4,258 nucleotides of DNA from the IMG/VR virus record IMGVR_UViG_3300029008_000041. One strand, written 5' to 3'. The translations under genes and the position numbers were made by a program. The notes under the pieces are model-generated. The model did not search any database. It saw only the letters and a program-made list of their open reading frames with translations, and had not been told where the DNA came from. Source of the DNA: a virus (lineage: Duplodnaviria; Heunggongvirae; Uroviricota; Caudoviricetes). Shown one piece after another: positions 436 through 2,514 of this stretch; position 1 is the stretch's first letter, and the number at the start of each line of letters is the position of its first letter.

Positions 436-462
436 AAAAAACAAAACCCGCCGAAGCGGGTT
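436..462 (-). terminator. rho-independent terminator at the 3' end of the hok mRNA
   Basis: On the minus strand: 7-bp stem AACCCGC/GCGGGUU with a UUCG tetraloop (445-462), followed immediately by UUGUUUUUUCC (444-436). It lies about 70 nt downstream of the hok stop codon. Confidence 0.6.
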
Positions 463-468
463 AAGTGC

Positions 469-481
469 GGGTGCGTTGAGG
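469..481 (-). promoter_or_regulatory. candidate fbi (fold-back inhibition) element of the hok mRNA
   Basis: Minus-strand CCUCAACGCACCC is near-complementary (one extra C) to the predicted hok mRNA 5' end GGGUGCUUGAGG (855-844). In hok-family mRNAs the 3' fbi pairs with the 5' tac element. Confidence 0.35.
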
Positions 482-529
482 ATGCCTGACACATCAGAGG
501 TGGCGAGGGATTCTCCCCCGCCTGGTCTC

Positions 530-685
530 TTACTCCTCAGGTTCGTAAGCTGTGAAGACAGCGACCTCCGTCTGGCCGGTTCGGATTCGTACCTCGCAGA
601 GGTCTTTCCTCGTTACCAGTGCCGTCACTATGACGGTTAAACAGATGACGATCAGGGCGATTAACATCGCCTTTTGCTGCTTCAT
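530..685 (-). CDS. hokD: Hok/Gef family type I toxin (51 aa)
   Basis: Translation MKQQKAMLIALIVICLTVIVTALVTRKDLCEVRIRTGQTEVAVFTAYEPEE shows the Hok/Gef hallmarks: an N-terminal transmembrane helix and the conserved TRKDLCEV..R.G..EVAVF.AYE core. From memory it matches E. coli HokD (RelF) and differs at about ten positions from Gef/HokC. SD AAGGAG sits 9 nt upstream of the ATG at 685-683. The symbol is from recall, not a search. Confidence 0.88.
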   Translation of the reverse strand: MKQQKAMLIALIVICLTVIVTALVTRKDLCEVRIRTGQTEVAVFTAYEPEE

Positions 686-742
686 AGCCTGCTTCTCCTT
701 GCCTTTCGGCACGTAAGAGGCTAACCTACATTTGTGAGACAT
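530..742 (-). CDS. mok: mok-like in-frame upstream reading frame overlapping hok (70 aa)
   Basis: ATG at 742-740 with SD GAGG 8 nt upstream; same frame and same stop as hok, which is how chromosomal mokB/mokC are annotated in E. coli. The leader AUGUCU...AGCCUCUUAC...GCAAGGAGAAG closely resembles the plasmid R1 mok/hok leader as I recall it. Confidence 0.45.
   Translation of the reverse strand: MSHKCRLASYVPKGKEKQAMKQQKAMLIALIVICLTVIVTALVTRKDLCEVRIRTGQTEVAVFTAYEPEE
699..727 (+). promoter_or_regulatory. candidate sok antisense promoter
   Basis: Plus-strand TTGCCT (699-704), 17-nt spacer, TAACCT (722-727), inside the mok N-terminal codons. This is positionally equivalent to the R1 sok promoter (recalled as TTGCGC-17-TATCCT). 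Predicted start near 734. Confidence 0.4.
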
Positions 743-805
743 AGATTGGGCCTCAGATTAATGTTAAGCGTCTTGCAGGACGCGTAATGTTAACTGGGGC
801 TTTTC
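734..805 (+). ncRNA. sok: candidate Sok-like antisense RNA
   Basis: Plus-strand transcript antisense to the mok SD and start codon. It contains a long imperfect hairpin (761-790, one mismatch) followed by GGGGCUUUUCUCU. Both ends are approximate and inferred by analogy with R1 hok/sok. Confidence 0.35.
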
Positions 806-829
806 TCTATCTGCCTTTTGGTGTTCATG

Positions 830-855
830 CCTGAGGCAGATAGCCTCAAGCACCC
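830..855 (-). promoter_or_regulatory. hok mRNA 5' leader (tac/ucb-like stem-loop)
   Basis: Minus-strand GGGUGCUUGAGGCUAUCUGCCUCAGG forms the hairpin UGAGGC-(5 nt loop)-GCCUCA. A downstream GGCAGAUAG (815-807) can pair instead with CUAUCUGCC (843-835), giving mutually exclusive folds like those described for nascent R1 hok mRNA. Confidence 0.45.
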
Positions 856-861
856 GCAGCA

Positions 862-889
862 ATTCTACTTAACTCTCGCTTTACCGCAA
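862..889 (-). promoter_or_regulatory. candidate hok mRNA promoter
   Basis: Minus-strand -35 TTGCGG (889-884), 16-nt spacer, -10 TAGAAT (867-862), about 7 nt upstream of the predicted mRNA 5' end near 855. Confidence 0.4.
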
Positions 890-904
890 ACCGTTTTTAC
901 CCGA

Positions 905-920
905 TATGGGAATTCCCATA
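905..920. repeat. perfect 16-bp palindrome TATGGGAATTCCCATA, with a second 8-bp palindrome TGAATTCA at 926-933
   Basis: Verified by hand as self-complementary; flanking CCG/CGG extend it imperfectly. It lies about 15 bp upstream of the candidate hok -35 and directly downstream of the 34-codon ORF. No U-tract follows on either strand. Confidence 0.5.
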
Positions 921-930
921 CGGAATGAAT

Positions 931-1035
931 TCAGTTCCCCAGGCGCTCCATCAAAAACACAACCAGGCAGTAAACACCCACAACAGCAACAACAGCCAGC
1001 GCACCTTCCATTGCCAGTGATATATCATCCGACAT
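931..1035 (-). CDS. candidate small hydrophobic membrane peptide (34 aa)
   Basis: ATG at 1035-1033 preceded by a strong SD AAGGAGGG (4-nt spacer). Translation MSDDISLAMEGALAVVAVVGVYCLVVFLMERLGN has an acidic N-terminus, a roughly 19-residue hydrophobic core and a charged C-terminus. It is below the ORF-track length cutoff. Confidence 0.4.
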   Translation of the reverse strand: MSDDISLAMEGALAVVAVVGVYCLVVFLMERLGN

Positions 1036-1070
1036 ATTCCCTCCTTTGGTGTTAATCCCGGCGAACGTTT

Positions 1071-1154
1071 TTACCCCCACCGACAAATAACATATACTAA
1101 AAAAGCGATAGCCATAGCAACGCCTGTAATTGCAAATGCTTCAGGCCAGTTCAT
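1071..1154 (-). CDS. candidate small hydrophobic peptide (27 aa), translationally coupled to the DUF551 gene
   Basis: Its ATG (1154-1152) overlaps the TGA stop of the DUF551 gene (1153-1151) in an ATGA arrangement. Translation MNWPEAFAITGVAMAIAFLVYVICRWG. No separate SD, consistent with coupling, but the ORF is very short. Confidence 0.3.
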   Translation of the reverse strand: MNWPEAFAITGVAMAIAFLVYVICRWG

Positions 1155-2020
1155 TGGCGCACCTCCTGCGGCGGTTCTGGTAGAGGCATCCAGTGTGATG
1201 GTATCCACGACGCACCAGGTATTATCCACCCATCATTAGCGTCAGGATGCCCCGGGATGTAAGTCGCCCATTTCATTCGCCAGTCACCTTTCCTGCCAAA
1301 ATCCCTGGCAACAAGAACGGCTGTTTTGGTATCCGGCATTCGCTCACTACAGCTTATCCAACTATCCGGAGTTACCGGATAGTTGCCCGATAGTGCATTC
1401 TGCTCCAGTGATGCTTTTACAAACCACGCTGCCTGAACTATAACGCCATGAATCCAGCGCAAATCAGCATCGCGATCTTTCTTTTTCATCTTTTCGCCAC
1501 TTAAGGCCTTGCTTATGTGGCTGCGTACCAGGTCTTCATGTAATTCCTTCGCCTCCTCAATGGTGAAACCACCAGGCAGAAGAGCCGGAGTTACCGGAGA
1601 GCTGGTTGACGCTTCCGGGATTTTCCGAAAATTATTGGTTGACGAATCTTTATTTTCCCGAAAGTTTCCGGACTGAAGCATGGCTTCGCGGCAATCGTTC
1701 CAGCCTGTAGCGTATGCAGTCGCTTTGCTGCTGCCTTCAACTGGCGCATCCTGCCAATACATTTCTTCCGGCACTATCGGCGCTGGAGGGGCGGCAAATA
1801 GATATCCGCCAAAGTCAGGAAGCTCTCTAATGGCCTGTACGAATTTTTGTTTGCCTACGTCAACCCCTAATGGGTAATGAGCTATAATCTTTGCCACCGG
1901 CTCTGCTTCCAGCGATGCCAGCGCAATCCGTGCCAGTTCCATTTGTTCACCACGGGTAAGCCCGTTTTCAAGCGGATTTTTAATGAACAATTCAATACGT
2001 TCTTTGGTAATAGTGGTCAT
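1151..2020 (-). CDS. DUF551 domain-containing prophage protein (289 aa)
   Basis: ATG at 2020 with SD AAGGAG 6 nt upstream. The C-terminal region ...WISCSERMPD..AVLVA...W..ATYIPG...GWIIPGASWIPSHWMPLPEPP matches the DUF551 signature as I recall it from lambdoid-prophage proteins. N-terminal domain not recognised. Confidence 0.85.
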   Translation of the reverse strand: MTTITKERIELFIKNPLENGLTRGEQMELARIALASLEAEPVAKIIAHYPLGVDVGKQKFVQAIRELPDFGGYLFAAPPAPIVPEEMYWQDAPVEGSSKATAYATGWNDCREAMLQSGNFRENKDSSTNNFRKIPEASTSSPVTPALLPGGFTIEEAKELHEDLVRSHISKALSGEKMKKKDRDADLRWIHGVIVQAAWFVKASLEQNALSGNYPVTPDSWISCSERMPDTKTAVLVARDFGRKGDWRMKWATYIPGHPDANDGWIIPGASWIPSHWMPLPEPPQEVRQ

Positions 2021-2295: not shown

Positions 2296-2514
2296 TCAGT
2301 TTTCCTTATACGGATTAATTTTATTGTGCAGTGTGTTGAATGACGCCCATACCACGTCGTTATACAATTCAATAACTGGCTCAATTATTTTTCCGATTAT
2401 CCAGGCTAGGATTAACGGGGATATCGGTATCATCAACACGATAAACAGAATGAGAAACAGAAATTCTGTTGTTCTACTCTTTCGCGGATATTTTTTTCTA
2501 AATAATGTGACCAT
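2296..2514 (-). CDS. hypothetical small membrane protein (72 aa, one predicted TM segment)
   Basis: ATG at 2514-2512. Translation MVTLFRKKYPRKSRTTEFLFLILFIVLMIPISPLILAWIIGKII... has a basic N-terminus followed by a hydrophobic helix. AT-rich gene, coupled to the downstream gene. Confidence 0.6.
   Translation of the reverse strand: MVTLFRKKYPRKSRTTEFLFLILFIVLMIPISPLILAWIIGKIIEPVIELYNDVVWASFNTLHNKINPYKEN

Follow-up and report, generated by a model that had tools for sequence, protein, structure and literature searches.

Two small genes for probable single-pass membrane peptides between a DUF551 gene and the hok/sok locus of a lambdoid prophage

AcrZ, MgtS, CydX and KdpF are single-pass small membrane proteins of bacteria which modulate larger membrane proteins. 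Among phages, Imm and Sp of T4, SieA of P22 and gp15 of HK97 are membrane proteins for superinfection exclusion or prophage “moron” functions. Here we analyze two short open reading frames (ORFs) of a lambdoid prophage, termed ORF1 (27 amino acids, aa) and ORF2 (34 aa), which lie between a DUF551-domain gene and a hok/sok type I toxin-antitoxin locus on a 4,258-nt stretch of Caudoviricetes DNA (IMG/VR record IMGVR_UViG_3300029008_000041; the whole stretch is called the window in the following). Like AcrZ and the other three proteins, both have less than 50 aa, one predicted transmembrane (TM) helix, short polar ends and are of a kind often missed by annotation, but they are mosaic, prophage-encoded and without sequence homology to these four. 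The phage proteins named above are comparable as products of accessory membrane-protein genes in mosaic early regions. They are, however, larger and unrelated in sequence. The Hok toxins of the Hok/Gef-Sok systems are also small hydrophobic single-helix peptides in prophages. In contrast to these, neither ORF1 nor ORF2 shows similarity to Hok/Gef, and no antisense RNA, mok-like leader or fold-back mRNA was found for them. A further difference is that ORF1 is probably coupled to the preceding gene and that the homologue of ORF2 is translated in growing cells.

Hydrophobic microproteins, the general class to which ORF1 and ORF2 belong, were described for the Enterobacteriaceae in the “Entero67K” collection of intergenic small ORFs (smORFs) under purifying selection, the products of which are mostly hydrophobic (PMC11188072). 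Among the smORFs co-directed with the upstream gene, about 13% start no more than 10 nt from the stop of that gene, with an overlap in roughly one third of them (PMC11188072). ORF1 belongs to a well-known kind within this class, the microproteins with translational coupling to the gene ahead of them, which the Enterobacteriaceae encode in abundance (PMC11188072). Neither of the two peptides was found in the supplementary data of that study which were searched. As far as can be searched in the PHROGs, Pfam and NCBIfam models and in the literature, ORF1 represents an undescribed family. A literature search with peptide strings and accessions retrieved only the supplement of Hücker et al. (2017) for ORF2 and nothing on ORF1. 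The closest described relative of ORF2 is found in prophage Sp6 of E. coli Sakai (ECs_5710, WP_001278455.1, XECs145). It belongs to the same family, with 91-100% identity, and takes the same place, with a DUF551 gene on one side and a hok-family locus on the other. XECs145 was reported as a novel gene on the basis of ribosome profiling (RIBOseq), classed as “real” and predicted to be located in the inner membrane (Hücker et al., 2017; PMC5597208, S2 Table). In lysogeny broth (LB), 79.1 reads per kilobase per million (RPKM) were obtained for RNA and 346.1 RPKM for footprints, which gives a ribosomal coverage value (RCV) of 4.35 at a coverage of 0.99. The respective values were 121.3, 150.1, 1.14 and 0.84 in brain heart infusion (BHI), and 73.3, 1.1, 0.01 and 0.37 under cold and osmotic stress (PMC5597208).

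We propose that ORF1 and ORF2 are separate, genuine genes for single-pass inner-membrane peptides at the distal end of the early operon of a lambdoid prophage, a reading to which we assign a probability of about 0.72. That both are real genes is very likely. Their most likely role would be that of accessory single-pass inner-membrane peptides, and for a modulating effect on other membrane proteins the chances seem about even. An earlier note on this DNA, made from the letters alone, had suggested small membrane proteins as one possibility. The hydrophobic single-helix character of the peptides, the purifying selection described below and the published ribosome footprints for the ORF2 family all favor this suggestion.

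ORF1 (MNWPEAFAITGVAMAIAFLVYVICRWG; 1071..1154, minus strand) extends from an ATG at 1154-1152 to a TAA at 1073-1071, and ORF2 (MSDDISLAMEGALAVVAVVGVYCLVVFLMERLGN; 931..1035, minus strand), a single-TM peptide gene, from 1035 to 931, both exactly where the earlier note had placed them. The ATG of ORF1 overlaps the TGA of the DUF551 gene (1153-1151) in the form ATGA, as had been noticed before. Its Shine-Dalgarno (SD) sequence AGGAGG (1162..1167, minus strand) is located 7 nt 5' of the ATG within the DUF551 coding sequence. It is contained in the C-terminal codons of that gene (…PEPPQEVRQ-stop), of which those for …PQEV… read GCAGGAGGTG. ORF2 has its own SD, AAGGAGGG (1039..1046, minus strand), and the description of this site as near-consensus holds. 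Each peptide carries a single hydrophobic stretch, also in agreement with the earlier description, and the best 17-residue Kyte-Doolittle means are 2.48 for ORF1 and 2.94 for ORF2. These are the top two hydrophobic windows among the 27 short (20-60 aa) ATG-started ORFs of the window. As the window contains 65 ORFs of at least 20 aa in total, ORFs of 27-34 codons alone are not above chance. The signal above chance is, on the comparative evidence, the pattern of conservation.

The ORF1 family follows the pattern M-x-W-P-E-A-F…Y-S-I-C-R-W-G. A tblastn search with ORF1 against 50,697 phage records identified relatives in 99 records, nearly all of full length and with about 55-70% identity, and the commoner variant of the family as query gave 93 phage records. 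Over both searches, the full-length relatives span about 55-100% amino-acid identity. They occur in phages 933W, VT2-Sakai, VT1-Sakai, Stx2 II, Min27, BP-4795, ArgO145 and in the lytic Vequintavirinae phage Av-05. With the 933W copy as query for distant blastn, ORF1-type DNA was found in 1,723 of 5,426 complete E. coli genomes, which hold about 3,300 copies. Relatives of such short peptides were reached through the DUF551 C-terminus, DNA patterns, N-extended ORFs and exact look-ups. A strict degenerate ORF1 pattern was applied to 185,579 GTDB species-representative genomes and matched E. coli and Shigella flexneri, besides one match in Curtobacterium, which presumably arose by chance. The family therefore appears to be specific to Escherichia/Shigella phages. 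Some tblastn matches in Salmonella and Klebsiella are weak and unconfirmed. Downstream of yfdS in CPS-53, no K-12 homologue was found.

The start signals are conserved together with the peptide. In the great majority of about 45 inspected ORF1 loci, a purine-rich SD is followed by an ATGA in which the start codon shares bases with the upstream stop. The SD-like purine motif is located 6-10 nt upstream and is present in every type of context, including upstream genes other than DUF551, and the ATGA is kept behind at least five unrelated upstream C-termini. Exceptions are in-frame 6-nt deletions (loci L069 and L072), an ATA start (L035) and early stops (L006 and L044). The genes upstream comprise several DUF551 subtypes only about 40% identical to one another, a coiled-coil Ea22-like gene (…IEQEVNR), a gene for a protein ending in …SVEDILR and, in Av-05, one for a protein ending in …KKKGMNQ. 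The downstream side varies as well and shows hok/sok, an intrinsic terminator, xis, a toxin-antitoxin pair in convergent orientation or a further overlapping gene. The last five codons ahead of ORF1 (…QEV[RN][QR] and the stop, DNA GCAGGAGGTGAATCA-ATGA; window 1155-1180) are common to otherwise unrelated upstream genes, which places the recombination joint of the module about 15-20 nt upstream of the ORF1 start, with the SD included. ORF1 moves as a unit composed of the SD in the last codons of the preceding gene, the ATGA overlap and the ORF. An apparent fusion of DUF551 and ORF1, indicated by 121-aa DUF551 proteins of Shigella clustering with the 27-aa peptide, was rejected as a clustering artefact, since these sequences do not contain the peptide.

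The length of ORF1 is constant at 27 codons, while the stop alternates between TAA and TGA. Residues M1, W3, G11, A15, Y21 and W26 are invariant among 17 distinct peptides, and P4, E5, A6, F7, C24 and R25 are nearly so. For 18 intact unique sequences, the proportion of synonymous differences (pS) is 0.49 and that of nonsynonymous differences (pN) 0.17. The resulting pN/pS is 0.35 in the ORF1 frame, while the two remaining sense frames give 0.88 and 1.64. Over 24 haplotypes, 37 synonymous and 47 nonsynonymous segregating changes were counted, a significant excess of synonymous change (p 1e-4). Conservation across prophages with variation at synonymous sites, the outcome the earlier note had named as support for ORF1, was thus obtained for this family, which has relatives in some 95 phage records, and indicates purifying selection only in the ORF1 frame. 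Judged by these patterns, ORF1 is conserved at the protein level and not as a DNA or RNA element.

ORF2 shows a much narrower distribution. The segment was detected in 732 of the 5,426 E. coli genomes, with about 2,050 copies altogether. The median is 3 copies per genome and the maximum 6, the DNA identity is 90% or higher throughout, and a few plasmids carry the segment as well. No match to ORF2 was obtained by tblastn against the phage collection, to which the low-complexity filter may contribute, and megablast of positions 880-1200 against the same collection found the DUF551 end only and no ORF2. A phmmer search against 1.84 billion representative proteins revealed close copies only and no remote homologue. 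From these searches, ORF2 is restricted to E. coli prophages and is best described as a young add-on. It was found only behind the “AFAITGVAMAIAFLVYVICRWG” (“AFAIT”) subtype of ORF1 and almost always ahead of hok. Of 133 copies in IMG/VR, 129 are intact and the other four stop two codons early; one haplotype has a GTG instead of the ATG start. The pN/pS value is 0.22 in frame versus 0.89 and 3.56 off frame. Here, too, synonymous variation is in excess (p 0.013): 13 of the segregating changes are synonymous and 14, mostly conservative ones, nonsynonymous, whereas off-frame and antisense controls are not significant. The XECs145 frame of Hücker et al. (PMC5597208) has 54 aa and begins inside the end of ORF1, in contrast to the 34-aa ORF2 annotated by the Prokaryotic Genome Annotation Pipeline (PGAP). 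The 34-aa form is favored because of its conserved SD and ATG (GTG in one variant), whereby AAGGAGGG formed part of the exact pattern used to collect the ORF2 loci and its presence in these is no evidence of conservation.

ORF2 is carried on a cassette of 174 bp (892..1076), which is flanked by perfect 11-bp direct repeats at 892-902 and 1066-1076, as found by repeat search. On the coding strand the repeat reads GGGTAAAAACG, and it extends to about 20 bp if imperfect matches are allowed. The aligned relatives L015, L021, L056 and 933W lack the cassette with ORF2 and the palindrome described below and have a single copy of the repeat. Without the cassette, the stop of ORF1 directly abuts the hok promoter region; the downstream repeat copy is located immediately 5' of the inferred hok -35 region. 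This arrangement suggests that the cassette was gained or lost by short-homology recombination. A near-perfect palindrome lies 3' of the ORF2 stop (901..923). It is a perfect 22-mer, CGATATGGGAATTCCCATATCG, with an EcoRI site as its centre in most relatives, and the copy of the window has a 1-nt deletion. The lack of a T-run behind it rules out an intrinsic terminator. The palindrome may bind a protein, or form a hairpin for RNA processing or insulation between the early operon and the hok promoter.

The operon would run from the replication genes through the DUF551 gene, ORF1, ORF2 and hok/sok to DUF968, rusA and Q. ORF1 would be translated by termination-reinitiation of ribosomes finishing the upstream gene (translational coupling), and ORF2 from its own strong SD on the repeat-flanked cassette. 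From hydrophobicity and charge, each peptide is predicted to insert into the inner membrane with one helix. ORF1 has E5 at the N-terminal and R25 at the C-terminal side, and ORF2 has D3, D4 and E10 in the N-terminal part and R31 near the C-terminus. By the positive-inside rule, these acidic N-termini and the arginines near the C-termini suggest an N-out/C-in topology for both. In addition, ORF1 has the interfacial aromatic residues W3, Y21 and W26 and an invariant face of small residues (G11…A15), features typical of helices that pack on another TM helix. By analogy with the small membrane proteins of bacteria and phages named above, ORF1 and ORF2 may bind a larger membrane protein of the host or phage, or each other, and may be accessory in lysogeny, infection or exclusion. 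The ORF2 homologue was transcribed and translated in uninduced cultures, which suggests a lysogen-expressed, moron-like gene. A holin or lysis function was considered and rejected on context, because the ORFs belong to the early/nin region and have no endolysin gene as a neighbour.

Several observations weigh against this proposal. The antisense frame that shares the wobble positions gives, as would be expected, a similarly low omega for ORF1, so the strand call rests on the conserved start, SD and stop and not on omega alone; on the plus strand of the window no ORF of at least 20 aa spans 1071-1154. Premature stops occur in ORF1 (…CR-stop-G in 11 of about 139 copies and MT-stop-PEAF in two). 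The divergence of ORF2 is low, at 90% DNA identity or more, and the selection test is based on 27 segregating changes. The footprints of XECs145 may include multi-mapped reads, as Sakai has several near-identical prophage copies, and its frame of 162 nt overlaps the last codons of ORF1. The Sakai study took only ORFs of at least 30 aa (PMC5597208), and ORF1, at 27 aa, has no RIBOseq support there because it is below this cut-off. It is also not contained in the supplements of the EDL933 study. No functional homologue of ORF1 or ORF2 was detected in Pfam, PHROGs, NCBIfam and PADLOC, where only sub-threshold hydrophobic noise appeared (PTR2, Cmr5, phrog_38566), and the role as membrane modulators is for this reason purely inferential.

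The position of two short hydrophobic single-helix peptides next to a bona fide hok/sok locus would also be expected if they formed a second type I toxin-like pair, as the earlier note had considered, which is held back by antisense or trans-acting RNA and kills or depolarises the cell. The size (under 60 aa) and single-TM hydrophobicity of type I toxins of the Hok/Gef, Ldr, Ibs or TisB type are indeed found in both (27 and 34 aa; 2.48 and 2.94), and two promoter-like sites are present on the opposite strand (1011-1038 and 1070-1098). However, the number of such sites is at chance (2 found versus 1.2±1.1 in shuffled sequences), no antisense antitoxin with its own promoter and no independent, structured and inert mRNA was found, and no similarity to Hok/Gef or another toxin family was detected at the thresholds of Pfam, NCBIfam, PHROG and PADLOC. 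The 281-nt region folds no better than shuffled sequences (z -0.55), and no Rfam RNA is present besides sok (680-855). Moreover, ORF1 lacks its own promoter and leader, its start codon lying within the stop of the gene before it, and the SD of ORF2 is strong and exposed. The Sakai homologue of ORF2 is translated efficiently during exponential growth (RCV 4.35), whereas a type I toxin would be kept silent. Computation cannot prove the absence of some unknown antisense RNA, but a toxin pair seems very unlikely on these grounds. It would also be conceivable that both ORFs are translated and yet without function. The conservation of ORF1 would then be due to a cis element or a linker for recombination where modules meet beside the hok promoter, and ORF2 would be a proto-gene of recent origin that hitch-hikes in multi-copy prophages. 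The start junction of ORF1 is a mosaic joint with the same ~15 nt behind unrelated genes, ORF2 lacks relatives beyond close E. coli copies among the 1.84 billion proteins and any in the phage collection, and its C-terminus tolerates truncation. On the other hand, ORF1 has kept its length, start, stop and invariant residues at a pS of 0.49 with a frame-specific signal, and this codon-position pattern is not expected of a DNA or RNA cis element. ORF2 has its excess of synonymous change and is intact in nearly all copies. We regard absence of function as unlikely.

The remaining alternatives concern the G5 run just 5' of the ORF1 TAA (1074..1078, minus strand; local sequence …CGGTGGGGGTAAAAACG…). 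The frame of ORF2 is that of ORF1 shifted by -1, and the 13 codons between both are open. One extra G would therefore create a 74-aa fusion, ORF1-VKTFAGIHTKGGN-ORF2. Such G6 alleles, encoding MNWPEAF…CRWG-VKTFAGIHTKGGN-MSDD…, exist on three contigs with two diverged haplotypes; one is a metagenome contig from ENA, and the other two come from Logan assemblies, each of a different sequencing run (L206:3001-3225, L207:1053-1277 and L208:556-780). The earlier idea that a frameshift has split one ancestral two-helix protein finds support in these alleles and in the frame relation, as well as in the restriction of ORF2 to the AFAIT subtype. AlphaFold predicts two helices (3-35 and 41-73) for the fused allele at modest confidence (predicted local distance difference test, pLDDT, 70; predicted template modelling score, pTM, 0.41), which is not decisive. 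According to this idea, ORF1 and ORF2 are halves of a ~74-aa protein with two TM helices, separated by a 1-nt deletion in the G run, and now represent a decaying pseudogene or a split gene with parts that can still assemble. The relatives of ORF1, however, end with RWG-stop at 27 aa in many lineages without ORF2 and with diverse downstream sequence, and ORF2 is located on a separate cassette with its own SD and ATG. An exact search found the G6 junction neither in IMG/VR, where at least 120 copies carry ORF2 behind G5 or an interrupted run, nor in the JGI metagenomes. The fused state is thus not the common one and, as seen so far, is confined to terminal branches. Three substitutions were seen in the linker, each of them nonsynonymous when read as part of the fusion. 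The “fusion” P0066 of the protein database results from a different homopolymer indel, and such fusions can therefore be sporadic errors or mutations. The idea of a split protein is mostly to be rejected, and we consider it quite unlikely, although G6 alleles do fuse both ORFs. A related possibility is that the ribosome slips by -1 at the run, with the P-site tRNA-Gly moving from GGG to the overlapping GGG, so that a programmed or phase-variable 74-aa fusion is made beside the separate peptides. The sequence …UGG GGG UAA allows perfect -1 re-pairing in the P-site at the stop, the -1 frame runs into ORF2, and the run varies naturally between G5 and G6. But the run is interrupted in about 15% of the copies (GAGGG, with an ORF1 two residues shorter, GTGGG and GGGAG), and one copy has a 1-nt deletion in the spacer, which alters the frame relation of ORF1 and ORF2. 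Neither a conserved slippery site with a downstream stimulatory structure, for which the fold analysis gave no evidence, nor coding constraint on the linker was found, and five G residues are short for slipped-strand phase variation. Programmed slippage therefore appears extremely improbable. Little credence is also given to the more general form of this idea, in which both ORFs are one functional unit of switchable stoichiometry or architecture and slippage at G5 makes a two-pass membrane protein of 74 aa. In that form, slippage could be ribosomal (-1 at GGG-GGG-UAA) or a slipped-strand mutation between G5 and G6. If it were true, the MxWPEAF…CRWG family would be a widespread membrane effector of phages which has gone unrecognised and is tail-coupled to early genes of the Ea22/DUF551 type in Shiga toxin (Stx) phages.

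Apart from these considerations, the G6 fused alleles differ in their surroundings. In place of hok, a convergent pair of genes (IbrAB-like) lies downstream of them, one encoding 214 aa and the other a PAPS-reductase/DUF3440 protein of 408 aa.

Two separate genes for membrane peptides thus remain the preferred reading, and their annotation status differs. It had been claimed that both are unannotated and missed by ORF callers. This is correct for ORF1, which is not annotated by PGAP in RM14723, Sakai and strain 2D, nor in the 933W reference. ORF2, in contrast, is annotated by PGAP as a hypothetical protein, WP_001278455.1 in the RM14723 stretch and ECs_5710 in Sakai prophage Sp6. A few GenBank records do contain ORF1, for instance as a “putative prophage protein” in E. 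coli 042 and as ETJ68712.1. The unannotated homologue of 933W, MTWPEAFANVGTVMAVVLVVYSICRWR (NC_000924.1 58832-58912, minus strand; L215), is flanked by ST933Wp77 and sokW/hokW. As annotated, ST933Wp77 has an N-terminus (VDNSWCVVETVTLDAATRTAAGGE…) that is an off-frame reading of a DUF551 3' end; its start was therefore probably placed too far 5', and the site is a mosaic joint. At contig ends, PGAP calls fragments in the ORF1 frame (“GGESMTWPEAF…CRWG”; P0028, P0036 and P0056) “DUF551 domain-containing protein, partial”. As they are off the DUF551 frame, this label looks like an annotation artefact which propagates in GenBank.

All genes of the window are encoded on the minus strand, according to the ORF listing. 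The 3' part of a replication-type gene (4239-3652, minus strand) has no Pfam match, and its relatives are annotated as helix-turn-helix (HTH) domain or phage replication proteins. It is followed by a DUF977 gene (3611-3186, minus strand). Several small hypothetical genes are located between the DUF977 and DUF551 genes, among them one for a small and hydrophobic DUF4014 protein of 72 aa (2296-2514, minus strand; E 1e-24). As this gene shares the operon with ORF1 and ORF2, the early region encodes three or more putative small membrane proteins in addition to Hok. The DUF551-domain gene itself (1151..2020, minus strand) encodes 289 aa, with the Pfam domain PF04448 at residues 220-285 (E 6e-19).

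The hok/sok locus (445..867, minus strand) is a neighbour of ORF1 and ORF2 and not part of them. The earlier identification of an adjoining known type I toxin locus is confirmed by the sok/hok leader (855-680, minus strand; Rfam RF01794, sok, 121.7 bits) and the hok coding sequence (685-530, minus strand; Pfam HOK_GEF PF01848, E 3e-23). A terminator was detected at 462-445 (minus strand) by terminator scan. The -10 box is presumably TAGAAT at 867-862 (minus strand), since we take the promoter position in the window from the homology to hok of R1. A sub-threshold Rfam match to IsrK, a small RNA of a Salmonella prophage, at 441-521 (minus strand; 18.6 bits, E 0.82) overlaps the 3' end and terminator of hok and is probably noise. 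A stretch of E. coli RM14723 is 100% identical to window positions 880-1200. By way of this match, the setting is that of a Rac/Qin-like lambdoid prophage, from the replication genes to DUF968-rusA-Q. In RM14723 (L001:6457-7545), ORF2 and hokD are separated by the insertion of an IS481-family element. The DUF551 gene of this strain is broken into a pseudogene and a 112-aa remnant, whereas it is intact in the window.

The understanding of type I toxin systems is unchanged by ORF1 or ORF2, and ORF2 adds little because it was already annotated and already reported as translated. The practical value lies mainly in annotation, where the 27-aa family should be added and the naming as “DUF551, partial” by PGAP corrected. 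ORF1 is a conserved gene which is missing from the RefSeq annotation of about a third of the complete E. coli genomes and from reference Stx phages like 933W, in which the Ea22-like region and hokW enclose its homologue. Phage-encoded small membrane peptides could plausibly modulate envelope proteins of the host, lysogeny or exclusion, and the ORF1 family is a clean candidate for such a function in medically important prophages.

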